This document shows, one piece after another, positions 20,420 to 47,356 of a stretch of DNA of 64,000 nucleotides. A model generated the notes under the pieces. It was not told where the DNA came from. It saw nothing but the letters and a program-made list of their open reading frames with translations, and made no database searches. How positions within the stretch are numbered: position 1 is the stretch's first letter; every line of letters begins with the position of its first letter. Made by a program: the position numbers and the translations under genes. This DNA is from a virus, in IMG/VR virus record IMGVR_UViG_3300019776_000919, positions 96,001-160,000 of that record. One strand, given 5' to 3'.

Positions 20420-23400
20420 ATGACTGATAAAATCAATGCCGTAACTGGAGATAAGTTAACTTATATCTTCTCGTCACCTAAGGAGATTAATGACAAGGTT
20501 GATAAAGTTCTAGTTAAAGGTTTGTCCACTCAGTTCCCAGTGGAAGGTAAGCACTTTCGTTTGGAAGTAGATAACATCCGTGCTGAAAGAAAGAACTATT
20601 CTCACGACGATGAAAAAACAGCTATCCTTCAGAGTAAGAGTCTGACGTACCCTATTAAAGCTAGGCTTAAACTTATTCGTAAAGACACCGGAGAGGTCGT
20701 AGATCAGAATCCTGACTTTACGCTTATGGATGGTTTCCATATGACTGAGAAGCATACTCTGCTCTATAAAGGTAATAACTACGGCGTTGCTAATCAATTA
20801 CAATTGCTGCCCGGGGTTTATACCCGTATCGATAACGTGGGTGGGTTAGAGAGTCACTTTAACACTGGCTCAGGTAGAAGCTTTAAGGTTGAACTAGACC
20901 CCCAAACCGAACTTTTTACCATCACTCCTGATGGAACTAGTTCTAAGATTCCTGTTACTCCTCTACTTACTAAAGTATTCGGAGTAGGCCCTTTAGTAGC
21001 CAGCAAATACTTCTCTCCTGAAATCTGGGACAATAACGTTGCTGCTACTGCAGGTAAGGATGACCGCTTTGTAGCAGATCTCTATAGAAAACTAGTTTCT
21101 ACTTCTAAACAAGATCCTCATGCTTCTGTCCCTAAGATGGCTGAACAGCTGAGAGAATCTTTGGCTTCGTCTAAGCTTCACGCTAAGACTACTTTGGCTA
21201 CGTTAGGGAAGTCGTTTGAAGGTATCAACGAAGAGACTATTCTTTTGGCGATGAAGAATCTAGCTGATACCGCTAGTAATAAGCGTAAAGAAGATAACCG
21301 TGACTCCCTGCAATTTAAACGCGTTCAGAATCTTCCGGATTTCCTTAATACTCGTTTCTCTAAAGAGCACCAAGTTGTTAAGTTAATCAAGAGTAGAATG
21401 GCCCGGGAACTGGATCGTATTAATCCTGAAAAACCCACGCTAAAAAATAGCTTAGTACCTAAGCCTTTCAACAAGTTCCTGTCCGGTTACCTCATGGATA
21501 GTAACCTAGTTGCTACCCCGCAAGAAACCAATCCTTTGGAGAGCATTGAAAACGTTGCTAAGGTAACTGTGTTAGGTGCTGGTGAAGGTGGTATCTCCTC
21601 TGATAGAGGCGTACCTATCAGTGCCCGAGACATTGACCCATCCCATTTAGGTATCATTGACCCTAGCCGTACACCTGAAAGTGGACACGCTGGTATTGAC
21701 CAGCGGTTTACCATTACTGCAAGACGTGACGATGACGGTAATCTTTACGCTAGAGTAAAGGATAATAATGGCAAGATCAAATTCTTAAGTACTCAAGATA
21801 TGATGTCTAGTACTATCGGATTCCCCCATCAAGAACACAAGGGTAAGGTACAGGCTCAGATCAAAGGCGAATTGGGAGCTTGCGATGCTTCTGAAGTGGA
21901 TTATTGGTTAGGTGACACCACTGACATGTACACAGTTACTACTAACTTAGTTCCATTCTTGAATAGCAACAGTCCGGGTAGACTTACTATGGCTGGTAAA
22001 GCTATTCCTCAAGCGCTGAGTCTGGTCAATAGAGAGGAGCCACTTGTTCAAACTACTAATGAGCATGGATTACCTTTTGTTAAATTACTAGCTAAGCTGG
22101 GAACTACTGTTGCCCCTCATGCGGGTACGGTCATGAAGGTTGATGGTAACTCAGTAGTTATCAAATCCCCTGAGGGAAAACTCACTTCTGTAAAAGCAGT
22201 TAAGAATCTTCCTTTTAATATGAAGGGTTTCCATGACGATGAAACTCCTTTGGTTAAAGTCGGAGATACTGTTCAGGAGCATGATCAACTATACGAGAGT
22301 AACTACACTAAGAATGGAACTCTTGCCTTGGGTAAGAACTTAGAAGTAGCATATATTCCCTGGAAGGGTTATAACCACGAAGACGGATTGGTAATTAGCC
22401 AGTCTATAGCTGACGGTTTATCTAGCCATCATGCTTATAAAGTTGACTATGAAATCAGCAACGAGTCTGTTCCTAAGAAAGCTTTGTTGGCCCGTTACTT
22501 CCCTGGTAAGTTGACCAAAGAGCAACTAGACAAGCTCGATGATCGAGGTTTTGCTAAACCCGGCGTTACTCTTGAGCATGGAGACCCTGTATTTGCCGTT
22601 CTGGAGCATCGTGAGCCTACGCCTAGTGATAAGATGCTGGGTCGCTTACATAAGAGCTTAGTGACACCATACAAGCTCATTACTGAAGTATGGAATCATG
22701 ATGAAGTCGGTAAGGTTGTTGATGCCCATACTGCAAGTAAGCAGGTTAGATTCATTATCCGTTCTGTAAAGAGTTTAGAAATTGGAGATAAGCTGACTGG
22801 ACTACATGGCAATAAGGGTATCGTATCTTTGATACTCCCTGACTCAAAGATGCCTTACAATAAGAACACTGGTAAGCCGGTTGACATTCTTTTGAACCCT
22901 GCTTCCGTTACTTCACGGGTTAACTTGGGGCAGCTCATGGAAACTGCAGCGGCTAAGATTGCTAAAGCTACTGGTAAGCCATATATGATCCATAACTTTA
23001 GTAAAGGTTCTAACGTAGCCGAGCTTCAAGAAGAGCTAAAAAAACACGGGTTGTCTGATGCTGAGGATATTGTAGATCCGGAAACGAATCGTACATTGGG
23101 TAACATCCTTACCGGCCCCCAGTACTTTATTAAACTTTATAAAACGTCTGATCAAAACTGGTCGGCTAGAAATACTGGTGGGTATGATGCTAACAATCAA
23201 CCTACTAAGGGTGGTGAAGAAGGGTCTAAGAGCGTAGGCTACATGGAAATGCTCGGTTTAATGGGTTCTAATGCTAGAAAGAATCTGAAAGAAATCGCTA
23301 CCATTAAGAGTGAAAACAACCAGGAGTATTGGGATAAGTTTTTACAAGGTCAACCTCTACCTAAACCCAAAACTACGTTTGTATCTAAGAAGTTCTTAGA

Positions 23401-23812
23401 TTATCTAACTGCATCAGGCATCAAGACCACTATTCGTGATGGCGTTATTAAAGCTACCCCTTTGACAGACAAAGACATCCTTGCTATGTCAAATGGAGCT
23501 ATTAAGAATTCATCGATGATCAATGCTAAAACCTTAGGTCCTGACAAGGGTGGATTGTTTGACCCTGCGGTTACTGGTGGATTGGATGGAGAGAAATGGG
23601 CTCATTATAAGCTCGTTGAACCTATTCCTAATCCGTTGATGGAAAGACCCATTAAATCTGTTTTGGGTTTATCAACAAAGGATTTCGAAGACATTACCTT
23701 AGGTAAGATCGGAGTACATCGGGAGGGTGATGTGTTTCATTTACACGATATAGATACTGGCAACAGAATTAAATCTGTTAAAATATCTGCTCTAAATACT
23801 GCAGCAGAATAA
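20420..23812 (+). CDS. multi-subunit RNA polymerase beta subunit fused to the N-terminal part of beta'
   Basis: RDIDPSHLG..DP..TPE, GKNLEVAYIPWKGYNHED, GDKLTGLHGNKG, LNPASVTSRVNLGQ, QPTKGG...GYME; C-terminal GGLFDP..TGG...AHYKLVEP resembles the start of beta'. Confidence 0.93.
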   Translation: MTDKINAVTGDKLTYIFSSPKEINDKVDKVLVKGLSTQFPVEGKHFRLEVDNIRAERKNYSHDDEKTAILQSKSLTYPIKARLKLIRKDTGEVVDQNPDFTLMDGFHMTEKHTLLYKGNNYGVANQLQLLPGVYTRIDNVGGLESHFNTGSGRSFKVELDPQTELFTITPDGTSSKIPVTPLLTKVFGVGPLVASKYFSPEIWDNNVAATAGKDDRFVADLYRKLVSTSKQDPHASVPKMAEQLRESLASSKLHAKTTLATLGKSFEGINEETILLAMKNLADTASNKRKEDNRDSLQFKRVQNLPDFLNTRFSKEHQVVKLIKSRMARELDRINPEKPTLKNSLVPKPFNKFLSGYLMDSNLVATPQETNPLESIENVAKVTVLGAGEGGISSDRGVPISARDIDPSHLGIIDPSRTPESGHAGIDQRFTITARRDDDGNLYARVKDNNGKIKFLSTQDMMSSTIGFPHQEHKGKVQAQIKGELGACDASEVDYWLGDTTDMYTVTTNLVPFLNSNSPGRLTMAGKAIPQALSLVNREEPLVQTTNEHGLPFVKLLAKLGTTVAPHAGTVMKVDGNSVVIKSPEGKLTSVKAVKNLPFNMKGFHDDETPLVKVGDTVQEHDQLYESNYTKNGTLALGKNLEVAYIPWKGYNHEDGLVISQSIADGLSSHHAYKVDYEISNESVPKKALLARYFPGKLTKEQLDKLDDRGFAKPGVTLEHGDPVFAVLEHREPTPSDKMLGRLHKSLVTPYKLITEVWNHDEVGKVVDAHTASKQVRFIIRSVKSLEIGDKLTGLHGNKGIVSLILPDSKMPYNKNTGKPVDILLNPASVTSRVNLGQLMETAAAKIAKATGKPYMIHNFSKGSNVAELQEELKKHGLSDAEDIVDPETNRTLGNILTGPQYFIKLYKTSDQNWSARNTGGYDANNQPTKGGEEGSKSVGYMEMLGLMGSNARKNLKEIATIKSENNQEYWDKFLQGQPLPKPKTTFVSKKFLDYLTASGIKTTIRDGVIKATPLTDKDILAMSNGAIKNSSMINAKTLGPDKGGLFDPAVTGGLDGEKWAHYKLVEPIPNPLMERPIKSVLGLSTKDFEDITLGKIGVHREGDVFHLHDIDTGNRIKSVKISALNTAAE

Positions 23813-24109: not shown

Positions 24110-25264
24110 ATGAATACAATAGATACCGATAGCTTAGTTACCGGCGGAGCAGCAATCAGAGATATGCTTTCTGCTATAGATGTCAAGTCTCAATTAGAAA
24201 CTCTAAAAAAAGATGTTTTGACTATTAAATCAACGTCTAAAAAAGACGCTATGATTAGGAAGATTAAATATCTTCACAGTCTGGATCAAATGGATAAAAA
24301 GCCTGATGACGCTTACATCCTGAACTACATGCCTGTCATCCCTCCTGTCAACCGTAGAACTTTATTCAAGGCTGGAAATCGTGCTGAACATGCAGATGTT
24401 ACAACTTTGTATAAGGACCACATGCTAGTTAATAGCAAACTTGGTGAAATTAAGGACGACGTTGAAGGTTCGGAATTAAAAGATCAAAGAGCTGATTTGT
24501 ACAACGGCGCTAAAGCCGTGATGGGATTAGGAGATGCTATCACTGGATCCAGTAGAGGAAAAACCCTTAAAGGTTTCTTGAAGCAGATTGCAGGAGAAAC
24601 TGGTCCTAAGACAGGTTTTTTCCAAGCCAAAATTTTAAGTAAGAAGCAAGACTTTTCGGGTAGAGCTACTATTTACGCTGAACCCAATCTTGGCTTTAAT
24701 GAAATCGCTTGCCCCGAAGATATGATCTGGGCTATGTATGAGTTTCACATCATTCGAGATTTAGTTAAGAACGGATATACTTATCCGGATGCTAAAAAAG
24801 CGGTTGAAAGTAGAAATGCGTCGGCACAATCTACTTTCAACAAGCTTATTAAGCAGATACCCATTATTGCTAACAGAGCACCTACTCTAATGCAAAGCAA
24901 CATCACTGCTCATTTCCCTGTGCCTATTAAAGGTAAAACATTGGGTATCAATCCGATACACTTACCAATGTACGCAGGGGACTTTGACGGCGATGCTTTA
25001 ACGGTACACGTACCGATTACTCCAGAGGCAATTGACGAGGCTAGAAGGAAGTTGCTTCCTGAGCATCACATGTACGACTTCCGTACAGGTTTGGGAAAAT
25101 CTCTTATCGCCCCTGGTCACGAAGCCATTTTAGGATCACACTACTTGACTGATCCAGATATGACTCAGAACGTCAGAGAATTTGATTCTGAAGCGGATGT
25201 GTTAAAAGCCCTTGAAAAAGGTGAGATTCAAAAGAATACACCCATCAAGTTACGTGGCTCTTAA
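24110..25264 (+). CDS. RNA polymerase beta' central (catalytic) fragment
   Basis: PVIPP..R, KKQDFSGRATI, NRAPTL, catalytic AGDFDGD, VHVP. Confidence 0.93.
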   Translation: MNTIDTDSLVTGGAAIRDMLSAIDVKSQLETLKKDVLTIKSTSKKDAMIRKIKYLHSLDQMDKKPDDAYILNYMPVIPPVNRRTLFKAGNRAEHADVTTLYKDHMLVNSKLGEIKDDVEGSELKDQRADLYNGAKAVMGLGDAITGSSRGKTLKGFLKQIAGETGPKTGFFQAKILSKKQDFSGRATIYAEPNLGFNEIACPEDMIWAMYEFHIIRDLVKNGYTYPDAKKAVESRNASAQSTFNKLIKQIPIIANRAPTLMQSNITAHFPVPIKGKTLGINPIHLPMYAGDFDGDALTVHVPITPEAIDEARRKLLPEHHMYDFRTGLGKSLIAPGHEAILGSHYLTDPDMTQNVREFDSEADVLKALEKGEIQKNTPIKLRGS

Positions 25265-27353: not shown

Positions 27354-28238
27354 TTATTCGACGGTGTCAATATCACCATCAGCATCGCCGTTATAAATCG
27401 GCATGCGAAGCATTTTATGAGCAAGACCCATGGTTTCTACTTGGATAAGTCTACCTATCCAATCCTTGGGATTGTTCCAAGCGTCTATACGTTCATTCCT
27501 AGAGAACCCCGATCCGACCTTAGCGACTTGCCTGCCAGAAGCATCACAGACTACTACAGCACCCATAGATTGTTTAGGATTCCCATCCTTGTCTATTTCT
27601 TGAATGATGTCAGTTATTTTTAAATTGTAATGTTCTTTGTGCTTTACTTTATATCGAACATTAACATCTTCTGGCTCTGTCAAAGAAGTAATAATAACCC
27701 CTTCTTGACCACCGGCTTTAGTAGAACGTATCAGAGAGTGTATGTCTGAAGGGTTAGAGTATGTTTTTGCAGCGTAGATAAGATCAGGTTTACCGACAAT
27801 GGATTCTACTCTTTTCAAATGATCCATTTTATCTTTATAAGTAGGGAAGTCAGGGTTTATTACGTTGTGTAAAACCGCACGGACTGGACCTATTTTGTTT
27901 TGTGTATCTATTGATCTGGCAGGTAAGGAATTTAGAATACCAGAAACTATCCTATGAGACTCGACATTGGCTTTATTAAAACCCGTATGTATTAATTCTA
28001 CGTTATATACGTGACCCGCAAGTTCCGGATATTTCTTATCTGTTAATTGAGGAAGTTGAAGGGTTCGGTCAGGATAGCCTCCTTTAACAGAAGGACGACG
28101 TGATATAAAAGATAAACTTCCGTCACTAGACACAGGCATAAAGAAATTAGCCCCGTCATATTTGATTGTAGCAACGGGGTTTCTAATTGACATCCAAGAT
28201 GTCTCATCTATATCCTTGTATTTAGAACGGGAGTACAT
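27354..28238 (-). CDS. ATP-dependent DNA ligase (minimal)
   Basis: KYDG (motif I), EGVII (IV), KVK (V), OB fold VGSGF, LRMP. Confidence 0.87.
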   Translation of the reverse strand: MYSRSKYKDIDETSWMSIRNPVATIKYDGANFFMPVSSDGSLSFISRRPSVKGGYPDRTLQLPQLTDKKYPELAGHVYNVELIHTGFNKANVESHRIVSGILNSLPARSIDTQNKIGPVRAVLHNVINPDFPTYKDKMDHLKRVESIVGKPDLIYAAKTYSNPSDIHSLIRSTKAGGQEGVIITSLTEPEDVNVRYKVKHKEHYNLKITDIIQEIDKDGNPKQSMGAVVVCDASGRQVAKVGSGFSRNERIDAWNNPKDWIGRLIQVETMGLAHKMLRMPIYNGDADGDIDTVE

Positions 28239-28249
28239 TGCTTATACTA

Positions 28250-28498
28250 TTATTCTGCTCTAGGCTTATCTATTAACAAATGAATACCTTTAGCCATCCC
28301 GTATCCAACCGCCCCGCCAATAAGACCTTCTTTCGGTATTCTGGATATTTTCTGTAATAAGCTTTGATTCTTATAGAAAGGGTGGGTAGCTCCTACTACT
28401 GCTCCCGTAAGACCTAGCGCGGTCGGGTTTAAAAAGCTTCTATCTGAAATCGGTCTACTAGGTTGATTCTCAGATATTTTAACCAGGTACTTATTCAT
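28250..28498 (-). CDS. NKYLxKI-motif small protein, Gly-rich hydrophobic
   Basis: Starts MNKYLVKIS. Confidence 0.75.
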   Translation of the reverse strand: MNKYLVKISENQPSRPISDRSFLNPTALGLTGAVVGATHPFYKNQSLLQKISRIPKEGLIGGAVGYGMAKGIHLLIDKPRAE

Positions 28499-28525
28499 AA
28501 GTAATCTTTGATAAAAAAATGAAAA

Positions 28526-28924
28526 TCAATACTTAGCATGATAATGATCCCCTAATAATTTTGTATATTTATTAGTGAAATCTTTATATGCATATTCATG
28601 GCTTGCCACAGGATTGCCTAATTTAGCCATATCGCTGGCATATACATCATGTAAAGCTTTGTGATCTTTTTTCAATTCCGGACCATGGACTTTAGAAGTA
28701 ATAGCGTCAAAATACGCTTGACCACTTATAGACTTACTTTTAGATTTCAATGAAAGTTGTTTTTTTACATTATCGTTATGTCTATTGAAATGCTCTACGT
28801 ATAAATTGTGTGAGTCATTCATAAATCTGTTGACTCTATCTTTAACTAAAGCATAATCGACCTTAGGTTCTTCTTTTTTATTGGAAAACGTAATTCCTGC
28901 AATTTTTTCTAAATATTTATTCAT
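28526..28924 (-). CDS. NKYLxKIA-motif protein
   Basis: Starts MNKYLEKIA. Confidence 0.8.
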   Translation of the reverse strand: MNKYLEKIAGITFSNKKEEPKVDYALVKDRVNRFMNDSHNLYVEHFNRHNDNVKKQLSLKSKSKSISGQAYFDAITSKVHGPELKKDHKALHDVYASDMAKLGNPVASHEYAYKDFTNKYTKLLGDHYHAKY

Positions 28925-30387
28925 GATTGATCTTTCATAACTTGTTTAATTTGGTCAAAAACAACTTGCTTATCATCGCTCATACCTGATAAGTATTTGT
29001 CTATTGATACCGGGGCTTTACCAAACATAGGCTTAGGATGAACACTTAGATAATGTTCAATGTCCATATGTCTTTCCTCTTTTGGCAAGTGTTCATGAGA
29101 TTCATATCTAGCCCCTCGTCCAACTACTTGCTTTATCTTGCTAGGGTTAAAGTGGGGTTCGAGTACTTGAGTTAGTTTAGTACCTTTAAGATCAAGCCCC
29201 TCTGCACCGGAGCTGGATACTAAAAGAACCTTAACTTTACCTGAATTGTAATTCTTTACCGCCTCATCTTTCTCCGCTTGACTTAGCTTGCCAGAAAACA
29301 CTACGTGAGGAATATCCTCTTCACTTAGTTTTTTAGCATATTCATGTACACCGGCATCTAAATAATTGCTATAGACAAGACCTTTAAAATTCTTATCCGA
29401 ACCCATTTTTGTTTTAAGATTTTCAACAGCCTTCTTTATCTTGGGAGTGTACTCGACATTTTCTGTGTCTTGATGCAGGTGACGATGAGAGTTAGAGACT
29501 TGACGAACTCCCGTTGAGAACGAATTTAACTGGGCTTTTTCTTGTTTATCTAAAGGGAGGTTATTTCTAATTTTCATTCTAAGCCAGAAAGGTATTTGAC
29601 CTTCCATAAACTTATACATTCTTCCTTGTTCAGGAGACATGTCTACTTCTATTGTTTTAGAAGAAGTAGTTGGAAATTTAGACTTAGATTCTGGATCGTC
29701 TTTTACATCGTAATAAGAAACGTGATCCTTAAACAGAGACCCTAATGCTTTCTTATTTCTAAGTACATCCACTTCTTTGGCGGGATGACGTAACAATACT
29801 TCCGCCAGACTTCTAGGTACTTTTTCTTTACCTAAAAAATGCTTTTCAAATTCTTTTCTATTCTCAGGTAAAACCTTGCCGCCATAAGCCATATTCATGA
29901 TAGGCGCAATATCAGCAGCATGGTTGTAGTTAGCAGTAGCAGTAGCTAACACTCTTTTGTCAGCGTCTTGAAATATTTCAGATAAAGCTTGAGTTCTTTT
30001 AGTTTCAGTATTGCGAAGACGTTGTGCTTCGTCGGCAATAGCTAGTACGTATTTATTTTTCTTTAGTTCTGGAGCTATTCTGGTAGCTTTTTCGTAAGAG
30101 TAAACATCAAGTCTTTTACGATCAATTTTTAACTTGTGTTTTTTAATCTCCTTATCTACGTTACTAACTAAGCTAGCGGGGGCTACAACCAATACCTTAC
30201 CATCTTTATTCTTGGCTTGAGCACGTTCAGCGGCAACTAAGAAGCCACGAGTTTTTCCAGAGCCCGTTCCCCAGTGTAAAACTACACCATCATTTTTTTC
30301 TAGCTTGTCTAAAGCAGCTTCTACATGAGGGCGTTCCTTTCTACTCTCGGGTTCTGACTTAGCAATTTTCACCAGGTATGGATTCAT
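28921..30387 (-). CDS. SF2/SNF2-like helicase with N-terminal NPYLVKIA motif
   Basis: GTGSGKT, DEAQ, TAT, AEGLDL, QVVGRGAR. Confidence 0.88.
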   Translation of the reverse strand: MNPYLVKIAKSEPESRKERPHVEAALDKLEKNDGVVLHWGTGSGKTRGFLVAAERAQAKNKDGKVLVVAPASLVSNVDKEIKKHKLKIDRKRLDVYSYEKATRIAPELKKNKYVLAIADEAQRLRNTETKRTQALSEIFQDADKRVLATATANYNHAADIAPIMNMAYGGKVLPENRKEFEKHFLGKEKVPRSLAEVLLRHPAKEVDVLRNKKALGSLFKDHVSYYDVKDDPESKSKFPTTSSKTIEVDMSPEQGRMYKFMEGQIPFWLRMKIRNNLPLDKQEKAQLNSFSTGVRQVSNSHRHLHQDTENVEYTPKIKKAVENLKTKMGSDKNFKGLVYSNYLDAGVHEYAKKLSEEDIPHVVFSGKLSQAEKDEAVKNYNSGKVKVLLVSSSGAEGLDLKGTKLTQVLEPHFNPSKIKQVVGRGARYESHEHLPKEERHMDIEHYLSVHPKPMFGKAPVSIDKYLSGMSDDKQVVFDQIKQVMKDQS

Positions 30388-31247
30388 TTTTGTTTATTTT
30401 CTAATTCTTTATCAACGTCTATACCGGGAGCAATACCCCAATTAAGCAACGCTTGTCTTCTTTTAGGTTGAACAGAGAGATCTTGCAGGGTAGGGTCAGC
30501 TTTTTGTAATTGAGCTAAATGCCTGGCTTTAAAGCTAATCCAACGTTTCATCTGACGCTCATCGTCATCGGTCCTCTTACCTGCCACATACCCTTTGTAC
30601 CATTGATACCAACCTTGGGGGTGTTCTTGATTGTGCCACGTATCAGGCCATTTGTCTAGGCTAGCTCGTACCTTGAAAAAATTGCCAGAAGGATCCCCGT
30701 CATTGTACTGAGACCCTTTATGAACCAACACCCCTAATCGTTGCATTTGATCAGGGGTTAAATCTGGACGAAACTTAGTCCGAACTTCCTCACTGGAAAC
30801 TGCAATCTTAGTTAGATATTTGTTTGAGTTCATTGTCGCCTTTTTTTCTAAACCTAGGTTTTTAAACAACCAAGGCTTACCTTTACCATACTTTGTTTCA
30901 TCCAATTTCTTTAACAAAAACCGAGACCCGTCCTTAGTAGAGATAACCAATTTATCTTCATCATCTTGGGGTTCTACCGTAGCTTTACGCACCCAGTCTA
31001 GATAAGTTACACCACCGCCATATTCACCTTTAGGTATAACTACTTTTTTACTTAAAGCGTATTCTCTATCATGGACAGGTTGCTCAAAAAGGAGTATTGA
31101 TTTACCCGGCTCAGGAAGTTCTTTTTTAGTAGCCCATGAATATGCCTTATCGCCTAGGACCATTCTATAATCCCAATGTAATCCCATTCGGTCAGCTTCG
31201 TGTCTCTGACGAGTAAATAATATTTGTTGACCTGATAGAGGATGCAT
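30384..31247 (-). CDS. LigD-type 3'-phosphoesterase (PE) domain fused through NKYLTKIA to a Trp-rich domain
   Basis: QRHEA...LHWDYR...YSWA...VH..EY...IPKGEYGGG matches the PE motif pattern; C-terminal PQGWYQWY...DDERQMKRW. Confidence 0.8.
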   Translation of the reverse strand: MHPLSGQQILFTRQRHEADRMGLHWDYRMVLGDKAYSWATKKELPEPGKSILLFEQPVHDREYALSKKVVIPKGEYGGGVTYLDWVRKATVEPQDDEDKLVISTKDGSRFLLKKLDETKYGKGKPWLFKNLGLEKKATMNSNKYLTKIAVSSEEVRTKFRPDLTPDQMQRLGVLVHKGSQYNDGDPSGNFFKVRASLDKWPDTWHNQEHPQGWYQWYKGYVAGKRTDDDERQMKRWISFKARHLAQLQKADPTLQDLSVQPKRRQALLNWGIAPGIDVDKELENKQK

Positions 31248-31313
31248 TGTAATTGAGTAATCTAAAAAATAGAACCTGGATTATACCAAGTTCTATTTTA
31301 GCTTTCCTGTATT

Positions 31314-38280: not shown

Positions 38281-39348
38281 ATGGCAACTATTACCATTCA
38301 AGATCTACAAGAAATCGCTGTGCAAGCCACTAGTGATTTTTTTAACAATCAAGTCCCTCTGAATCAATCCCTTGCTAAGCAGGCATCTGAGCGTGGACTT
38401 AATTCGGAACAGCTAAAAAGAGCTATTGAGACTACTAATACTTTGACTCATTTAAAGAGTATTGAAGTATCCAAGGATAGAACCGTAGAGTTTCCTGTTG
38501 CAGACTACACGTCAATTGTTAAAATGGCTTCAGTCCCTAATTTGACTGGCCCAGAAGACGAAGACGTACCTGACGGAGATGCTCACGGCTTCGTAGAAAA
38601 AGCAGCTTCTGCAGAAAGCATCCTAGCATACACTCCTCCTGATATGACGGAGAATGAGAAAATGTTGCATCTGCAGAAAGCTGCGCATATTAATAAAGTT
38701 GCTTTGGAAAACGCTCAAATTAATTTGAGAATTACCGGAGAAACTCTTCTAAAACAGGCTTTCGAACTAAGAAAAGACCCTCAGTTTATAGAGCATCTTT
38801 CAGCATCTTCTGCCGATAGTTTTCAATTTGAAAAGATTTCTACTCTTGTTTTAGGATCTATCGTTGATAGAAAAGATTACACAAACGGTATGTTTAAATC
38901 TGCTCAATTGAATGAAGTAGAATCATTTGTTTCTCTTTACAAGCAGGCCAGTGAATTGACTTCTGAAATCAAAACCAGAAAGAATATGGACGAACGCTGG
39001 GAAATGATTAAACAAGCTTCCATTTTAGGTTCTCTTGCTCAAGGGGTGGCTAAGTATACAACGAAAGCAGTGGTTGCCCCGGCTAAGTTAATGGGAAAAG
39101 CAATATCGGCTCCACTAGTAGCAGGAGCCGGGGTTGTTGGAAGACGGGTTAACAATGCTATTGCCAGTACCGGTGCAGGCAAAGCCGCAGGATTCACACC
39201 TAAACCTACTAACCCCGCGTTAGCTAAAAAAGTTATGGCTGTAGGAACTGGAGTAGGCATGGCAGCTATGGATGCCTCTGCTTTTGAGCCAAAATCTGAT
39301 CCTATGGGGTATGGTCAAGGCCGTATCTGGGATAATCTACAAAGATAA
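38281..39348 (+). CDS. probable internal head protein
   Basis: Many K-x-A sites; Gly/Ala-rich C-terminus. Confidence 0.7.
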   Translation: MATITIQDLQEIAVQATSDFFNNQVPLNQSLAKQASERGLNSEQLKRAIETTNTLTHLKSIEVSKDRTVEFPVADYTSIVKMASVPNLTGPEDEDVPDGDAHGFVEKAASAESILAYTPPDMTENEKMLHLQKAAHINKVALENAQINLRITGETLLKQAFELRKDPQFIEHLSASSADSFQFEKISTLVLGSIVDRKDYTNGMFKSAQLNEVESFVSLYKQASELTSEIKTRKNMDERWEMIKQASILGSLAQGVAKYTTKAVVAPAKLMGKAISAPLVAGAGVVGRRVNNAIASTGAGKAAGFTPKPTNPALAKKVMAVGTGVGMAAMDASAFEPKSDPMGYGQGRIWDNLQR

Positions 39349-39361
39349 ATTGAGAACAAAA

Positions 39362-39892
39362 ATGAACGAACAAATTCAAGAACTTTACGAATACGGCTTG
39401 GAAAAATACGCCGGAGATAAGACCGCTGCTAAAGATTTTGTAGTGGCTTTTATAAAAGAGGCTAGTGGTGCTGAAGTTGCTAAGCTGGGATGGAATACTG
39501 TAGGTAGATCTGCCCTACAAGCCTTGGGTGGAGCGTCGGTAGGTATTGGTGTAGGGTTAGGTATTCATGGGCTGTCTAGTATGATAAACGCCGCAGGTAA
39601 TGCGGGTTTACACGCTAAATTTAAAGAAGCTTTCAGTAAGGCTATCGCTATGAATCCCGTAGTTGCAGAGGGTCATAGATCAGAACCCGCTAAAGTAGAT
39701 TCTTATGCGGAAACCATTTTTAAGTTTGCTCCTCATGTTGCCTGTGATGCTAATTTACTAAGTACTGTTTTAGCTAATGCCGTACATGGTGAAAACGTAG
39801 ATCCTACTATTATTAAGTCTATTGTTGACCTAGAGTCCAAGCTTATCGAGACTCGTAAAAATTCTTTATTCACTCCTAAAACCTATCTATAA
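39362..39892 (+). CDS. probable internal head protein
   Basis: Start MNEQIQ avoids overlap; EKYAG, IKEAS; Gly-rich hydrophobic helix. Confidence 0.7.
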   Translation: MNEQIQELYEYGLEKYAGDKTAAKDFVVAFIKEASGAEVAKLGWNTVGRSALQALGGASVGIGVGLGIHGLSSMINAAGNAGLHAKFKEAFSKAIAMNPVVAEGHRSEPAKVDSYAETIFKFAPHVACDANLLSTVLANAVHGENVDPTIIKSIVDLESKLIETRKNSLFTPKTYL

Positions 39893-39893
39893 A

Positions 39894-40157
39894 ATGGACA
39901 AGTCTAGCAAGTTACTAGATTGGGCTGAAAAGTCCATCACTGAACTTAAGAATATGCCTATTCATAATAAGATAGGGTTAGGATTAGGCGTAACTTCACT
40001 TGGGCTAGGGTTAGTAAACTACCATAATAATAAAGTTAAATTAGATATGGATAAAGCAAGAATTGATCTAGATAAAGAGAGAGTTAATTTAGATATGAAA
40101 TCCCTTTCTGCTTTACAAAAAATCCACAAAGCTTTATCAAAAAAATCTAACATCTAA
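39894..40157 (+). CDS. small protein with one hydrophobic helix and a coiled coil
   Basis: 87 aa, coupled to neighbours. Confidence 0.7.
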   Translation: MDKSSKLLDWAEKSITELKNMPIHNKIGLGLGVTSLGLGLVNYHNNKVKLDMDKARIDLDKERVNLDMKSLSALQKIHKALSKKSNI

Positions 40158-40165
40158 ATTACCCC

Positions 40166-41689
40166 ATGTTAAAACTTATAGACATAGACTCTTCTTTCTT
40201 CAATGAAGAGCCTGTGGTTAGAATTATAAACACTGATTCTAATTTTCCATTGGAGAAGACTGCAGCTGATTCTAGGATAAATACTTTTATCTCCGATCTT
40301 AAACCGGAACAAGATAAAATATACGTCCACATTTTAGCTATGGGGGCTGGGGAATACTTTGGGGCTAATAGAAATGCAGACTATTTCCCTGAAGATAATC
40401 TTATCAAATGGCATGATACATTTAGAACGTCTCCTGCGCATATCTTTAAGCATCACATAAATAAAAATCCTGAGATTGCTATTGGTAAGGTCATTTTTTC
40501 CGTATACAACGAAAGAATGCACAGAGTAGAAGTTATTGCTTGGATTGATAAGAAAAAAGGATGGGATGTAGTTGATAAAATCGAGAGGGGTGAGTTCCCT
40601 GCTACTTCAATGGCGTGCCATACTCCGTATGATACTTGCTCTATTTGTGGAAACAAAGCTAGATCTCGTAATGAATATTGCTCTCATTTAAGAGGTGAAC
40701 TGGGTAAAGTCCATCCTACTGGTGAAAAAACCATGGCCATCAATGATGGAGCCCTTAAGTTTTTTGATATGTCAGTAGTATTTAAACCTGCAGATGTTAC
40801 TAGTAGTGTATTACAAAAAGTTGCTTATGCTGATCAATCTATTACCGGTTCTGCAGAGTCTGCGGAAATGATGGGTTTAGGTGAAAAAACTACTGAACTT
40901 AAAAAGTTAAGTTCGATGATTAAAGAGATTGAAGGAACTATGATCAATTCCTCAGACTCTTTAAAAGCAATCTTAGACAAAGTTAAGGACCCAGAAGAAG
41001 AAGTAATTTCTCTTTTAGAAGATTTAGAACTTGATCACGTAATTCATGCATTTGCAGAATTAGGCATCTCACCGTCTGTAGGGTTTTTTGCTAAGTTAAT
41101 CGGTAGAAAAATTTGTGGCGAGGATGTCGCCGGAATAGAGACGTTAGTAAAAGGTTTAATTCAAGTAGACGGTGATAAGGTACATGTACCGGAACAAGGT
41201 CTTTCTAAAGTTGCATCTACCTATGAAGTAAACCATGCAATTTCTATACTGTCGCCTATGACTAAACAATGTTCTATTTTCCCAGACATTGTTATGCAAA
41301 GAGAGCTGGAAAATTCAAACCCTGGATTTATACATCAAAGCGGGTTGGATTATATGAATTCTTCCAATGTAGGATATATCGGTAATGGACCTTATCCTGC
41401 TGCAGACCCTAGAAAAACATATTTACATTTGAGAGACGTTTACAGAGAGAAAAACTCAGATGGCTCTAGTATTTTGAAAACTTTATTTACTATCGGTGGC
41501 GCAGCAATAGCCGCTAAATGGCTAGTGTCGAAACTTATCGAAAGTAAAATGCAGGAACTTAGAGAAGAAATTCGCAAAGATAATTCTTCCCCAGTTAAAA
41601 TAGTATTAGTTAAATCGGCTGAACAAGCTTTCACTACTCAACAATTAGTTAAAGCATCCCTCTTGAATAGTTTAAAAACTGGGTTATAA
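40166..41689 (+). CDS. prohead (capsid maturation) protease
   Basis: N.NADYF, HH.NK, TSMAC..PYD.CSICGN, CSH, FFDMSVV..PAD; upstream of scaffold and capsid genes. Confidence 0.8.
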   Translation: MLKLIDIDSSFFNEEPVVRIINTDSNFPLEKTAADSRINTFISDLKPEQDKIYVHILAMGAGEYFGANRNADYFPEDNLIKWHDTFRTSPAHIFKHHINKNPEIAIGKVIFSVYNERMHRVEVIAWIDKKKGWDVVDKIERGEFPATSMACHTPYDTCSICGNKARSRNEYCSHLRGELGKVHPTGEKTMAINDGALKFFDMSVVFKPADVTSSVLQKVAYADQSITGSAESAEMMGLGEKTTELKKLSSMIKEIEGTMINSSDSLKAILDKVKDPEEEVISLLEDLELDHVIHAFAELGISPSVGFFAKLIGRKICGEDVAGIETLVKGLIQVDGDKVHVPEQGLSKVASTYEVNHAISILSPMTKQCSIFPDIVMQRELENSNPGFIHQSGLDYMNSSNVGYIGNGPYPAADPRKTYLHLRDVYREKNSDGSSILKTLFTIGGAAIAAKWLVSKLIESKMQELREEIRKDNSSPVKIVLVKSAEQAFTTQQLVKASLLNSLKTGL

Positions 41690-41744
41690 TTCAGTCAATT
41701 TAGTTAAGAATAATCTAAACAGAAAACCAAGGATAAAAAATAAA

Positions 41745-43682
41745 ATGGATCTAACTCTTGATCAACTGCTAGCTAGTTTTGAAACTGGCATGCAAAAATC
41801 AGCGTCGGAAGGCGAAGATAAGAAAGAAGAAGCTAAAGACGAGAAAAACGAATTCCCCTTCAAAAAGAAGGATGAAGAAGTTTCAGAAAAGTCTGAAGAA
41901 AAAAAGGACGAAGATGAGTCTAAAGATGAATCCGAAGGCCAAGAAAAAGAAGCTTCACTAGCTGGTGCCGCTTTGGCTCGTGAAGTAATGCAAAAAGTAG
42001 CATCACTCAACCTGGACAATGGAATGAATAAACAAGCCTCAACCGCCGGTCAAGCACTGGCTCGTGCCCTTCTAAAGAAGGCCTCTGCTGGAGACGTATC
42101 TACGACAAACGGCATTACCTCGGAAGCTGTTCCGAATAAGTCTCAAGTAGACAACGCTGAAATGGAAGCTGAAGGCGCTGCTGCTATTAAGGCCCTGCCT
42201 ACTGGCGACGGCGTACGTAACTACGGAACCGTTAATGAGATTTTTGATGCGATGATTCAAGACGCTCTTGCACAAGGCGCTGCTTCAACTGATCAAGTTC
42301 ATGAGCGTGGCGTTGCTAAGAATGAAGGTGCTGTTCTGGAACATGCTGTTCCGAATCAAATCAAAGTTGCCGCTATGAACGCCCTGATGCAAGGTGGTTT
42401 TGATTTTGACACTGCTGCCCAACTCTTGAAGTCTGCCGAAAGAAACGATCATAAAATTGAAGGATATATTTCCCCCGCTTGGCAAGAAAATGCCATTGCT
42501 AAGGACCACGGTAAAGAAGGCCTTAAGGGCGTAGGCGCTAATGTAAGTAAACACATTACCGGAGGCCTTAGAGTAGCTGGACGGGGATATCTAGAAGGTT
42601 TTGGCGGCAGCGTTGCCGGAGGTCTAATAGGCCAAGCTGTTGGGCTTGCAGGTAAAAATGCCCATGCTGTTAGAACCGGAACAAGTGTCGGAGCTACTTT
42701 AGGTGGACTTGGCGGCTTGGCTCATGGCGTTTATTCCTCTCTGAAAAACCAAGCTGATGAAGCCCATAAGAAGTATGCTTCAGAACAAGACCAATCGCAA
42801 GACGAAATCGAAAAGGCCGCCGCCATTTCCCATCTGGTCGCTAATGGCGTTAATTTTGACGACGCTTTTGAAATGGTTAAACAAGCCGAAGCTGAAATTG
42901 CTTTTGAAATGGAAAAAGCCGCTTGTCTGGAAACCCTGATCAATGAAGGTGTAGATTATGATTCAGCCGTTGAGTTGGTTAAGCAAGCTGCTGCTGGTGA
43001 TCTGAACACTACTGATGGTGTTAATCCTGGCTCGGTTCCTAATAAGAACCAAGAAGACAACGCTCAGATGGAAGCCGAAGGCGCTGCTACGGTAAAGCCG
43101 CTGCCCACTGGTAACGGTATTGCTGCTCAAGGTAATGTAAACCAAATTTTTGACGCCATCGTAGATGATGCTCTGGCTCAAGGCGCTGCTTCAAGTGACC
43201 AAGTTCACGAGCGTGGTGTATCGAAAGCCGAAGGTGCTGTAGAAGCTCATGCCGTTCCTAATCAGGTTAAGGTCGCTGCCATGAATAAGCTGTTGGAAGC
43301 CGGTGTTGATTTTGAAAAAGCTGCTGAAATTGTTAAGCAGGCTGGTGCCGCTGCAATTCCCAGTTTTCTCACCAAAGTAAGAGGCAACGCCATTAACGCT
43401 GTCAAAGATGCTAAGGCCCTAGTTGGAGCTGGTCCTAGCCGGTTCCCGATGGCTCCGGATTCAAAAGGCATGATCCGTCCTTTGAAGAGAGACAGTGCAA
43501 TGGGATTGGTTAAGAATCCTGTGGTTCAAGCTGGAGCTGCTACCGCCGCTGCCGGTGCCGGCGCTGCTGCCCTGAGTCGTGAAAAGAAAGCTGCCGTCGA
43601 TATGCTGACGGAAGCCGGTATTGACTTTGACTCAGCTGTAAGCTTGGTTAATGAAAAGGCCGCTGAACTGTACGGTGAGTAA
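41745..43682 (+). CDS. scaffold/core-like protein with internal duplication
   Basis: Acidic; two ~100-aa repeats; repeated G.DFD.A..LVK.A units; more than 15 K-x-A sites. Confidence 0.75.
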   Translation: MDLTLDQLLASFETGMQKSASEGEDKKEEAKDEKNEFPFKKKDEEVSEKSEEKKDEDESKDESEGQEKEASLAGAALAREVMQKVASLNLDNGMNKQASTAGQALARALLKKASAGDVSTTNGITSEAVPNKSQVDNAEMEAEGAAAIKALPTGDGVRNYGTVNEIFDAMIQDALAQGAASTDQVHERGVAKNEGAVLEHAVPNQIKVAAMNALMQGGFDFDTAAQLLKSAERNDHKIEGYISPAWQENAIAKDHGKEGLKGVGANVSKHITGGLRVAGRGYLEGFGGSVAGGLIGQAVGLAGKNAHAVRTGTSVGATLGGLGGLAHGVYSSLKNQADEAHKKYASEQDQSQDEIEKAAAISHLVANGVNFDDAFEMVKQAEAEIAFEMEKAACLETLINEGVDYDSAVELVKQAAAGDLNTTDGVNPGSVPNKNQEDNAQMEAEGAATVKPLPTGNGIAAQGNVNQIFDAIVDDALAQGAASSDQVHERGVSKAEGAVEAHAVPNQVKVAAMNKLLEAGVDFEKAAEIVKQAGAAAIPSFLTKVRGNAINAVKDAKALVGAGPSRFPMAPDSKGMIRPLKRDSAMGLVKNPVVQAGAATAAAGAGAAALSREKKAAVDMLTEAGIDFDSAVSLVNEKAAELYGE

Positions 43683-43687
43683 TTTGG

Positions 43688-43711
43688 AAGACCTGGGAAA
43701 CTAGGTCTTTT
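43688..43711 (+). terminator. hairpin/possible terminator
   Basis: AAGACCTGG-GAAA-CTAGGTCTT followed by TT. Confidence 0.55.
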
Positions 43712-43715
43712 AAAA

Positions 43716-44255
43716 ATGACTAACAAGTACATTACTAAAATCGCATCTCACGGGATCTCTGATAAAGTCAGGGATCCTGATTTAGCTCGTGCCGCTGGAA
43801 AAGGCTTTTTATACGGGTCTGTCGGATCTGCTATTGGAGCCAGGGGCGGCGGACTGACTTCTTTGATTGGTGCCGTTGCAGGCGGATATCATGGATATAA
43901 GTCTTCTTTAAAGAACCAGCTCAAAGATCAACAACTCCATGACATTAAACTTCAGGGGGCGGCTCAACGGCAAGAACTCCATGAAGCTAAAATGCATAAG
44001 ATGGCGGAAGAAAAAGATCCCCGCAAAGGTTTAAAAGAAGCCATCAACGTCGGTACTATTGCAGGGTTGGGTGGATTGGCTACTTTTGGTGCAGCTAAAG
44101 CTACAAACAAATTACTGCCGGTAATTGCAAAAAAATTCCCCAAGGTAACTCATAATGGTCTGTTGACCGGACTGGGTACTATCGGTGGTTTGGCTGCAGA
44201 TTACGCAGGGCTTAAAATCGGTGATGCAACTAACAAACACATAGACAAATTATGA
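43716..44255 (+). CDS. NKYITKIA-motif protein, Gly-rich hydrophobic
   Basis: Starts MTNKYITKIAS. Confidence 0.8.
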   Translation: MTNKYITKIASHGISDKVRDPDLARAAGKGFLYGSVGSAIGARGGGLTSLIGAVAGGYHGYKSSLKNQLKDQQLHDIKLQGAAQRQELHEAKMHKMAEEKDPRKGLKEAINVGTIAGLGGLATFGAAKATNKLLPVIAKKFPKVTHNGLLTGLGTIGGLAADYAGLKIGDATNKHIDKL

Positions 44256-44845
44256 AACTGTCAACACTACTATACAAACAAGCTCAAGAGCTTCGCACTC
44301 AATCCACAGAATATGTGGCGGTTGATCTTCTGAAAAAGGCTGGCATGGATGAAACTCAAGCCAGATTTGAAGTAGCTCAAAAGCTGATGGAAAAAGAAGC
44401 TACTGACTATTTGGTTAACTCTGGGATTGATTATGACACTGCATTGGAAATGGTTAAGATTGCCAACGTCAATGTAAAAGAGTTGGCTTCATTTAAAGTG
44501 GAGCCTTCGGAAGAAGAAGTTCTTTCTTTGAATATTGAAAAAGCTGCCGGGTTAGCAAAAGAGTTGGAAGAAAAGGTTGCTGACTATGATTCCCTGTTGG
44601 AAAAAGTAGCTCAACTGGAAGCTCAATTGGCCGATAAACCGGAAGTTGAAACTGTATCTGAACCAATGCAGAAGTTTGCTAAGTCAGGTGCGTTTACAAA
44701 TGAAGATTTGGAAGCCCTTAGAAAGCTTTCTACGGAAACCTTATCTAAAGTAGCATCATTGTCGGAACAGCCTTGGTCTTTAGGTAAGTCAGATCATTCA
44801 GATGTTGAATCATTAGATCCGCTTGCTCAATTCTGCTTAAGCTAA
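44252..44845 (+). CDS. scaffold-like coiled-coil protein
   Basis: Acidic, helical, many K-x-A sites. Confidence 0.7.
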   Translation: MKLSTLLYKQAQELRTQSTEYVAVDLLKKAGMDETQARFEVAQKLMEKEATDYLVNSGIDYDTALEMVKIANVNVKELASFKVEPSEEEVLSLNIEKAAGLAKELEEKVADYDSLLEKVAQLEAQLADKPEVETVSEPMQKFAKSGAFTNEDLEALRKLSTETLSKVASLSEQPWSLGKSDHSDVESLDPLAQFCLS

Positions 44846-44847
44846 AA

Positions 44848-45096
44848 ATGAATAAGTATTTACTAAAAATAGCAAGTATGTGGACTTCGGGGGAGACAGT
44901 ATCTCCTCCGAATCCTCATGTATTCAACCCGTCTTCTCCTCATTATGCACCTAGAGTGGCTAGAAGATCAGCTCTTCTAAAGGGGGCCGGAGGGTTAGCT
45001 GCAGGGCTTGGAGCTGGATATTTAGCAATAAAAGCTCTTAATCATTCTTCTGATCAAAACAACCAATATCAAGACTACTCTCAGTATGGCCAATAA
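44848..45096 (+). CDS. NKYLxKIA-motif small protein
   Basis: Starts MNKYLLKIAS. Confidence 0.78.
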   Translation: MNKYLLKIASMWTSGETVSPPNPHVFNPSSPHYAPRVARRSALLKGAGGLAAGLGAGYLAIKALNHSSDQNNQYQDYSQYGQ

Positions 45097-45415
45097 ATAC
45101 CTAGAGAAAATTGCTCTTAATAAGTTTGAACAAAAAGTATCATCTGGGATTATCTCCAATGATCCTCGTGTTCAAGCAGTCGCTTCTAAACTAGAAGACT
45201 CTAAGAAGTTTTTATCTAAATATCCGCATTCCCATGTAAATGAGTTAGTGGATCTACATAAAGACTTTAGTCCAGTAAGAGAAGCACGGGGTAAGTATCG
45301 TTCTGCATTAGGATCAAACCCGGTTACTCACTTTAAAAACGTGGGTGATAGCTTGGCTCATGGAGCCCCTAGTATTGCTAAGAAGCTTTCTTTTTTAGCT
45401 AGAGTACGTGGATGA
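45086..45415 (+). CDS. NKYLxKIA-motif protein
   Basis: Starts MANKYLEKIAL. Confidence 0.8.
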   Translation: MANKYLEKIALNKFEQKVSSGIISNDPRVQAVASKLEDSKKFLSKYPHSHVNELVDLHKDFSPVREARGKYRSALGSNPVTHFKNVGDSLAHGAPSIAKKLSFLARVRG

Positions 45416-45906
45416 ATCGGTACCTTGAAAAAATAGCATTGAATAGGTTTGAGCAGTATTTAGCTGCTCAGCCTAAAGATCGTATTTTCAAAAACCAACA
45501 AGTTCAAAAGACTTATAACTCTGTTCAGAAATCAGAGCAACTAGGTAGAATTGGTCATAAGATGAATTCTCTCGGTGGAGCCGGAGATAATTATCTAAAG
45601 CAATCTAGAGATGAACTTAGAAATAGCCGTGGTAAATTTGGAGTTTGGGATAAGGAAACTCAACCCAATAGAGCTTTTAAAAAACCAGAAGACGTAGCAG
45701 CTAAGAATGCTAAAAAACCCGTTATAGATAAACGTATCAAGGCTCCTAAATTTGATCCTTTAAAACGTTTAGCTGAGTCTGAATATAGGTACAAGCCTAT
45801 AGTAAGAACTCCAGCTAGTAAAGGGATGAAAGCCCTGGCTGCATTAGCTGCTGCTGGTGGGGCTGGATTAATTGGTTACGGAATAAAGAAAAATATAACG
45901 GAATAA
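45412..45906 (+). CDS. NRYLxKIA-motif basic protein
   Basis: Starts MNRYLEKIAL; C-terminal hydrophobic helix. Confidence 0.8.
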   Translation: MNRYLEKIALNRFEQYLAAQPKDRIFKNQQVQKTYNSVQKSEQLGRIGHKMNSLGGAGDNYLKQSRDELRNSRGKFGVWDKETQPNRAFKKPEDVAAKNAKKPVIDKRIKAPKFDPLKRLAESEYRYKPIVRTPASKGMKALAALAAAGGAGLIGYGIKKNITE

Positions 45907-46438: not shown

Positions 46439-47356
46439 ATGTCATACAATACTGAAACTACTAACGTTCAATTCATGAACCAGAGCTTCCTCCAGAAGAT
46501 CGACCAAGGCATGACCAAAGAAGCTGGCGTTGCCATGACGGCGTTTGTTCGTCAAAAGCTGCGTGAAGACGCCTTCGTTCGTAAGATTCTGCCTTTCCAA
46601 TCAGTAACTGCTGCTGAACTGGATCGTCAGACTGACGAAGAGCCCACCATCATCTGCGAAAAAGAACCTGACTCAGTTGCGGCTACCCTGCCGTTCCTGG
46701 CTCGTGCCCCGATTCGTTACTGGACTGGTCCTCGTTACAAGGTAAACTTCCAGAAGCTGTCGTCAGATGACTTCCGTAAGTCAAAGTTTGAACTGATGAC
46801 CTATCGTACGGACATCCGTACCGTTCTGCAAGAGAACTCGATCAAGGACATTCAAGAGCAAGAAGACTATGGTTTCTACCAGAATCTGCTGGCTATTGCT
46901 GCCAACAACACTGCTATCGGTGCCACTAACACCTACAGCATCTCTGGTTTCTCGAAGGCTAACTACCTGACAGGTATCAAGAAGCTGCTGGAAAGACGCC
47001 TGCCGGTTGGCTGTGTTCTGATGAGCCAGTCGCTGTACAACGACATGCTAGCCTTCCAGTCGACCGATATCGGTTCGCCTGCTGCCAGCTCACTGTTCAT
47101 GGGTGAAGCCCAACTGCAAGCCCCGTTCGGCTACAAGGTCATCACGACCAACAAGTCGACCGCTGCTAACAGCTTCTTCCCCACCAACAGAATGATCGTT
47201 TTTGCACCGCCTCAGTTCCTGGGTCAAGCGTTTTCGCTGCAAGATGCGACCGTATTCCTCAAAGCTGAGCTGGATATGATCGAATTTACGGCTTACGAAT
47301 CAATCGGTATCGGCCTGGGCAACACCCAAGGTTTCGTTATCATCGACTTCGTCTAA
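46439..47356 (+). CDS. major capsid protein (HK97 fold inferred)
   Basis: 305 aa, GGAGG SD, strongest codon bias in the window, follows protease/scaffold/cement genes, followed by a terminator. Confidence 0.8.
   Translation: MSYNTETTNVQFMNQSFLQKIDQGMTKEAGVAMTAFVRQKLREDAFVRKILPFQSVTAAELDRQTDEEPTIICEKEPDSVAATLPFLARAPIRYWTGPRYKVNFQKLSSDDFRKSKFELMTYRTDIRTVLQENSIKDIQEQEDYGFYQNLLAIAANNTAIGATNTYSISGFSKANYLTGIKKLLERRLPVGCVLMSQSLYNDMLAFQSTDIGSPAASSLFMGEAQLQAPFGYKVITTNKSTAANSFFPTNRMIVFAPPQFLGQAFSLQDATVFLKAELDMIEFTAYESIGIGLGNTQGFVIIDFV

Follow-up and report, generated by a model that had tools for sequence, protein, structure and literature searches.

A recurrent short peptide on predicted end-processing enzymes and head-block proteins of an Arash-like phage: a candidate capsid-targeting and cleavage signal

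The internal proteins IPI-III of phage T4 have in common only a 10-residue capsid-targeting sequence (CTS), MKTYQEFIAE, through which they enter the scaffold core and which gp21 removes once assembly is complete. The polyvalent proteins of phages and conjugative elements (Iyer et al. 2017, PMC5512222) are domain strings that are thought to be delivered with DNA and are sometimes proteolysed, and in the giant phages phiKZ and SPN3US head and ejection proteins repeatedly contain a short protease motif (AXE), with self-cleavage of the protease as well (PMC10052503). Here we describe a minus-strand operon at 27354-31247 of a 64,000-nucleotide (nt) window, the whole stretch analysed, which corresponds to bases 96001-160000 of an IMG/VR phage genome; this genome is complete, measures 169,713 bp and has direct terminal repeats. 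The operon encodes a LigD-type 3'-phosphoesterase (PE) fused to a C-terminal domain (CTD), a SNF2-family ATPase, two small basic proteins (p132 and p82) and an ATP-dependent DNA ligase, and a short peptide, NKYLxKIA, is found in all of these except the ligase. We lean towards reading it as a polyvalent-protein cargo locus that is split into separate genes, the modules of which are marked by a capsid-targeting and cleavage peptide resembling the T4 CTS. The virion-cargo reading is well supported by context, if unproven. Its themes, T4-type capsid targeting and polyvalent injected proteins, are known; new here are the peptide, the putative protease rule and the enzyme set. DNA searches returned no near-identical cultured relative, and at the protein level only Salmonella phage Arash, three Vibrio phages and PA-SR01 were recovered.

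The five open reading frames (ORFs) of the operon are co-directional, with a 4-nt overlap at two junctions and gaps of 27 and 11 nt at the others. They are located between the genes of the RNA polymerase (RNAP) beta and beta' subunits and adjoin an AAA ATPase gene. A reading made previously from the letters alone (hereafter the sequence-only reading) had proposed a five-gene unit in which four products carry the tag and the ligase does not, and in which the tag of the PE fusion is internal. The ORF coordinates and domain matches agree with this gene content (Table 1), and the tag distribution was confirmed, with the helicase copy having P in place of K and the PE copy, NKYLTKIA, occupying residues 153-160. 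In its general form, N-[KRP]-Y-[LI]-x-K-I-[AS], the tag occurs eight times in the 169.7-kb genome, always inside the window, and never in 100 shuffles (six-frame translations). Seven of the eight copies immediately follow a start codon, the remaining one being that of the PE ORF. Four copies belong to the operon and four to the starts of small proteins encoded between the prohead protease and major capsid genes. The eight carriers show no mutual similarity past residue 11, and all are basic (isoelectric point, pI, 9.4-10.2). Absence of the tag from the shuffles and the dissimilarity of the carriers rule out that it arose by chance or through paralogy. Moreover, the tag codons vary between copies and GC-richer relatives retain the peptide, indicating that selection acts at the peptide level; together with the copies that lie inside ORFs and have no start codon of their own, this rules out that the tag is an enhancer of translation or acts as a nucleic-acid element, be it RNA or DNA.

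In both this phage and T4, a peptide of about 9-10 residues stands at the N-terminus of otherwise unrelated basic proteins, partly from the head-gene block, and ends in a prohead-protease site (putative here), and both phages have a protease of the gp21 fold. Five of nine positions of MNKYLEKIA coincide with the T4 peptide (M1, Y4, E6, I8 and A9). On the other hand, the sequences differ, the putative cleavage rule here is L-x-K-x-A as compared to L/I-x-E in T4, and the peptide of the present phage is also found at module junctions inside long ORFs and marks enzymes (PE and SNF2).

The L-x-K-I-A end of the tag fits a core motif of the head proteins, [LIM]xK[IVAQST]A[SAG]. This motif is present 21 times in the proteome, as compared to 3.5±1.9 in shuffled sequences, and 15 of the 21 matches, two tags included, fall in the head block at 38281-45096. 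Arash and Vibrio phage D69 are the nearest cultured phages, with capsid proteins 46-48% identical. Arash has 26 matches versus 3.9±1.9 and a 41-kb stretch of D69 has 16 versus 1.1±1.0, in both cases concentrated in the homologous head proteins. The enrichment thus amounts to 6-15-fold across three distantly related phages (head stretches: window 38281-45096; Arash 145210-150170; L029 14771-19491). As a separate observation, the ORFs of Arash RNAP beta (Gp206) and Gp100 start with MPKSAS and MEKQAS, respectively.

A sequence search of the prohead protease against the PDB gave no match, and a fold search was therefore needed. Foldseek placed T4 gp21 (5jbl) first, with probability 1.00, an E value of 4.8e-3 and a TM-score of 0.54 (normalised by target), followed by the herpes assemblins. 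In addition, 67 BFVD matches were obtained at E<=1e-3, including many annotated prohead proteases, from an AlphaFold model with a mean predicted local distance difference test (pLDDT) score of only 67. Among 31 homologues, H55, H97, S148 and H174 are invariant, and so are the motif positions K31/A33, L216/K218/A220 and K483/A485, which lie in or beside AlphaFold-disordered (low-pLDDT) segments. Invariant motif positions in disordered linkers are the pattern expected of autoprocessing sites, and, as judged from its distribution, the core motif probably describes where the prohead protease cuts in the Arash-like clade. More than 500 homologues of this group's protease were found in metagenomes. 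The arrangement recalls phiKZ and SPN3US, which likewise have a virion RNA polymerase, many internal proteins and N-terminal propeptides with a short recurring motif, removal of which is putative here. However, those phages form an unrelated lineage; the present genome is Arash-like and of about 170 kb, the motif is another one, and the propeptide is far shorter (9 residues) and uniform.

Outside this genome, cargo status is best supported by Arash, through its homologue of the helicase. The 488-aa helicase of the window matches SNF2-rel_dom with 47.3 bits (cut-off 24.9) and Helicase_C with 54.5 bits, above cut-off, as well as phrog_62 (E 2.5e-47). A Walker A sequence (GSGKT) and a DEAQ box can be read in it, and its best solved relative, SsoRad54 (1z63, E 7e-7), aligns over aa 34-423, nearly the whole length. 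By these matches it is a bare SNF2-family ATPase core. It is 39.6% identical to Arash Gp217, for which mass spectrometry of purified virions yielded 38 unique peptides and 1148 spectra (PMC10585845); RNAP beta' reached similar values (40 peptides, 1210 spectra), as did the portal (32 peptides, 877 spectra).

The same data bear on another explanation, one that does not conflict with packaging as cargo: rather than being a repair helicase, the SNF2 protein may be an accessory of the virion RNAP, like bacterial RapA or poxvirus NPH-I, packed with the polymerase for early transcription, with PE and ligase being functionally separate neighbours. The Arash helicase is as abundant in virions as beta', and its gene begins at the stop codon of the beta' gene (141261), both in keeping with such service to the virion RNAP. 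In the present genome the operon itself is flanked by the beta and beta' genes, vaccinia NPH-I is among the weak PDB matches of the helicase, and RapA-type SNF2 proteins are common in phages (PMC5512222). Nevertheless, no RNAP-binding region was identified in the helicase, and relatives fuse it to PE or PE-CTD in one ORF, which argues for a function shared with the end-healing module. We regard the accessory role as conceivable but rather doubtful.

The fusions of the relatives also reveal how the peptide is used. It is present on 3-6 head-module proteins each in four IMG/VR contigs and two NCBI metagenome contigs. In one relative (L010) a single 634-aa ORF has the order PE-tag-tag-helicase, with no methionine ahead of either tag. 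A second (L007) encodes a 767-aa PE-CTD-tag-helicase protein, followed by a tagged 114-aa ORF that is the homologue of p132 at the same place, and a third (L008) a 665-aa PE-insert-tag-CTD-extension protein followed by a tagged helicase. In a database relative (P0018) the order is tag-CTD-ligase, with the junction L-K-K-Q-A-S. In the window, PE-CTD is the only fusion and the other modules are separate genes. Core-like sites stand 1-3 residues ahead of the internal tag in the PE ORF of the window and in L008, L031 and L032; one cut at such a site would, judging from the residue order, expose the tag near the new N-terminus. Behind the tag, database relatives carry HExxH modules, a barnase-type RNase or glycine-zipper modules. 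The insert of L008 and of P0005-P0007 contains a DGxHR motif that looks ParB-like, with no Pfam match, and was left unnamed. The RNase (PF00545) or HExxH modules are those of the polyproteins P0011, P0002, P0008 and P0016, and they suggest that the place behind the tag is an effector slot of variable content. A further relative (G001) has, at 1091-2090 of L027, a third cluster of three tagged small proteins beside a 296-aa protein rich in the core motif, a cluster that is absent from the genome of the window.

Relatives of the CTD occur within phage proteins of 2-15 domains, alongside NUDIX, PAP2, kinase, SNF2, RNase and HExxH modules. The more distant ones, in proteins of 1141-2184 aa that have NUDIX, PAP2, P-loop kinase or SNF2 domains, carry no tag; the tag is hence a trait of the phage lineage rather than of a particular domain. 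This multi-domain architecture matches the polyvalent-protein concept (PMC5512222), with which the locus shares the variable nucleic-acid-modifying or effector domains, SNF2 ATPases among them, and the link to virion genes. It differs in that the modules are separate genes in this window, and in that a clade-specific junction peptide is found instead of an embedded metallopeptidase. The word LigD is not in the main text of PMC5512222, where the CTD was not looked for under another name.

Table 1. Positions of the operon, its upstream hairpin, and the tagged and anchoring genes of the head block within the window.
Feature	Position	Strand	Description
ATP-dependent DNA ligase, minimal, untagged, 294 aa	27354..28238	-	phrog_114; motif I K26-Y-D-G; OB domain
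p82, basic, 82 aa, start MNKYLVKIS	28250..28498	-	no known family; two glycine-zipper-like hydrophobic segments
p132, basic, 132 aa, start MNKYLEKIA	28526..28924	-	no known family; pI 9.4
SNF2-family ATPase, minimal, 488 aa, start MNPYLVKIA	28921..30387	-	SNF2-rel_dom, Helicase_C, phrog_62
PE-CTD ORF, 287 aa	30384..31247	-	LigD-type 3'-phosphoesterase (aa ~7-137), junction peptide, CTD (aa ~161-287)
PE-CTD internal junction, L-E-K-K-A-T-M-N-S + NKYLTKIA	30801..30851	-	core-like LEKKAT with the tag 3 residues on; equivalents in relatives
Terminator-like hairpin, 14-bp stem then U-run	31266..31299	-	between the upstream 520-aa gene and the operon; -17 kcal/mol, z -4.8
Prohead protease, T4 gp21/herpes assemblin fold	40166..41689	+	phrog_18299, E 3e-9; Foldseek
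Second tag cluster, four small basic tagged proteins	43716..45906	+	43716-44255, 44848-45096, 45086-45415, 45412-45906
Untagged ORF within the second tag cluster	44252-44845	+	
Major capsid protein, head-module anchor	46439..47356	+	phrog_2522; 48% identity to the Arash major capsid protein

The enzymatic part of the operon was assessed through its catalytic residues and domain matches. The first ORF reaches 33.1 bits with the Pfam family LigD_N (cut-off 31.1) over aa 14-81, and 34.8 bits in the genome scan. Comparison with archaeal and bacterial PE structures gave 3p43 at E 1.1e-10. When 3p43, 3p4h and 3n9b are aligned with the ORF, their HxxxxxxHxDxR and H...Y positions correspond to its residues H16, H24, D26, R28, H59 and Y63, which are also kept in L007, L008 and L010. 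We take the essential PE residues of Pseudomonas aeruginosa LigD to be H42, H48, D50, R52, H84 and Y88, and counterparts of all are present. The sequence-only reading had named misaligned or inactive PE histidines as grounds for abandoning its proposal; with the full catalytic set present, this objection fails. The N-terminal part of the ORF is, by these residues, a member of the LigD-type 3'-phosphoesterase superfamily, with predicted Mn2+-dependent 3'-phosphatase and 3'-ribonucleoside resection activity.

The adjoining CTD (30387-30800) has 684 relatives at E<=1e-3 and is often joined to LigD_N. Relatives have PE-CTD fusions both with and without the tag between the two parts, which speaks neither for nor against the internal start that the sequence-only reading had considered for this ORF. 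Its invariant columns are G63, W64, W67, G74, D80, Q83, R86, W87 and R93. No Pfam or PHROG family matched it, and protein atlas scores were below 0.8. The AlphaFold2 model has a pLDDT of 90.9, for which Foldseek retrieved nothing at E<=0.001 and no convincing PDB fold emerged; the best VIA Z score, 5.7 for the C-terminal domain of mimivirus R596, is inside the tool's own stated noise range. The CTD is a widespread uncharacterised domain.

Taken together, the tag is shared between proteins of the protease-to-capsid block and module junctions, coincides with a putative protease site, and stands on the homologue of an Arash virion helicase, all of which points to a portable head-assembly signal. 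By analogy with the internal proteins of T4, the tagged enzymes probably travel inside the capsid and enter the cell along with the DNA. In the sequence of events that we infer, comprising targeting, cleavage, injection and substrate, the peptide (M)-N-K-Y-L-x-K-I-A, which precedes each of the modules presumed to be capsid-bound (PE-CTD, SNF2 ATPase, p132 and p82), would act like the T4 CTS and recruit the protein to the prohead's scaffold core. Its L-x-K-I-A end would then serve as the site of a gp21-type prohead protease, so that the tag is trimmed and the fused ORFs of relatives are cut into modules. The basic mature proteins would remain with the packed DNA and enter the cell together with it. 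There, PE (through removal of 3'-phosphates and 3'-ribonucleotides) and the SNF2 translocase could act on the incoming nucleic acid before or during early transcription, and the neighbouring untagged ligase, made in the cell, could seal the healed ends and probably also serve replication. The most far-reaching version, that NKYLxKIA is a portable label for packing and cutting, that any module behind it, whether a separate gene product or part of a polyprotein, is loaded and then freed by an L-x-K-x-A protease, and that PE, its CTD as a new nucleic-acid domain, SNF2 and ligase undo nuclease damage to the entering genome, we put forward only tentatively and hold to be less likely than not.

The ends on which these enzymes would act deserve separate consideration. 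The ligase matches phrog_114 (E 7e-20) over aa 22-283, and its OB region aligns to the ligase of Chlorella virus PBCV-1. No Pfam family passed its curated cut-off, OB_2 alone being found at 23.2 bits (cut-off 28, E 6.7e-5), and no adenylation-domain family of Pfam matched at E<=0.01. By this profile the protein is a divergent minimal ATP-dependent DNA ligase of the Chlorella-virus type. It is the sole DNA ligase of the genome, in which it is the only phrog_114 match and no NAD-dependent ligase was found. Being untagged as well, it may be a housekeeping, mainly replicative enzyme. Like bacterial LigD systems for non-homologous end joining (NHEJ), the operon places a PE domain with its full catalytic set beside an ATP-dependent ligase, and some relatives fuse the CTD to the ligase. 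Unlike them, it has no Ku, no polymerase domain was detected, PE and ligase are on separate proteins, and a SNF2 ATPase and a domain of unknown function are attached instead. Since Ku (PF02735) gave no match in the complete genome, NHEJ, with which the sequence-only reading had associated the PE, is the wrong label for this operon. That reading is therefore upheld in part: its virion-cargo element receives indirect support from a tag that behaves as a portable signal tied to head assembly, the NHEJ label has to be given up, and the ligase is untagged.

Absence of Ku also fits the view that PE and ligase heal RNA, for instance tRNAs cut by host anticodon nucleases, or nicks with 3'-phosphates, rather than rejoining or circularising double-strand ends. 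In line with this, CTD relatives are combined with modules characteristic of end healing, namely NUDIX, PAP2 and P-loop kinase, and a barnase-type RNase occurs in one of them. The ligase, however, falls among the ATP-dependent DNA ligases and its OB domain is of the DNA-ligase kind, and as an account of the operon we consider this improbable. In terms of substrate alone, RNA or nicks are as possible as double-strand ends, and a role of the operon in end repair or circularisation is plausible only. As a side observation, an 868-aa ORF beyond the window contains, at G000:C1:49709-50380, a weak match to an RNA-ligase domain (24.1 bits, under the cut-off).

Several findings weigh against the cargo reading. 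The core motif was defined after seeing this genome, and then applied unchanged to Arash and D69. The NKYL tag is absent from both of these phages. Arash Gp217 is packaged although it lacks the tag, which consequently is not needed for helicase packaging in the Arash lineage. The residue following the last A of the tag is variable, unlike the [SAG] of the head-protein sites, and the candidate rule that a core site directly precedes every internal tag was rejected, as it holds in only 3 of 14 database relatives (strict site). The ligase is untagged not only here but in all four genomic relatives examined (including L007, L008 and L010). Lastly, the operon is on the strand and among the units that are driven by TGGTATAAG promoters, i.e. 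the non-structural genes. This sigma70-like sequence is found in 30 copies in the genome, all on the minus strand and all intergenic, within the window for example at 1600, 7914, 11848, 16740, 17387, 27319, 32910, 55585, 57585 and 60946, with TTCAAT about 15 nt upstream and AATAGTA downstream. The pattern suggests a strong single-class promoter for the non-structural strand.

Such a setting would suit an ordinary intracellular replication or repair module, in which the peptide would be a structural helix or a docking motif (for a chaperone, a membrane, or a replisome or RNAP hub) with no link to the capsid. The operon is on the minus strand among promoter-driven non-structural units, beside an AAA ATPase, and contains the sole DNA ligase. 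Nonetheless, half of the tag carriers are located inside the head-morphogenesis block in every relative examined, the core of the tag is common to a motif that is concentrated in head proteins and invariant in the protease linkers, and Arash virions contain the helicase homologue in abundance. We therefore hold a purely intracellular module to be unlikely.

Should the peptide be a capsid address label, sequence alone would tell which proteins a large group of uncultured phages injects, and, if so, foreign proteins could be loaded into these capsids by means of this short label, as with the T4 CTS. The LigD phosphoesterase, the widespread CTD and the SNF2 ATPase would then join the enzymes that phages deliver with their DNA, suggesting an early form of counter-defence in which ends damaged by nucleases are repaired. 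The prohead protease would have a previously undescribed L-x-K-x-A specificity, a putative rule for which the cultured phages Arash and D69 offer an immediate test.

Upstream of the operon no exact copy of TGGTATAAG was found, as the sequence-only reading had stated; a -10-like TGGTATAAT, one mismatch from it, stands there instead at 31280-31288, 33 nt before the ATG and in the loop of the terminator-like hairpin, which a generic terminator scan missed and direct folding revealed. A further sequence, TATAATCC, was considered as a second promoter class, for which there are too few sites to call; it is present at 31285, 35644 and 48923, which places it 13-35 nt ahead of three units: the PE operon, a head gene (35673) and a 499-aa gene (47408-48907). 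Among the flanking RNAP genes, the beta-type subunit, a single 1525-aa protein in Arash (Gp206), is split here into 20420-23812 and 24110-25264, about 300 nt apart, and the same split is also present in L010.

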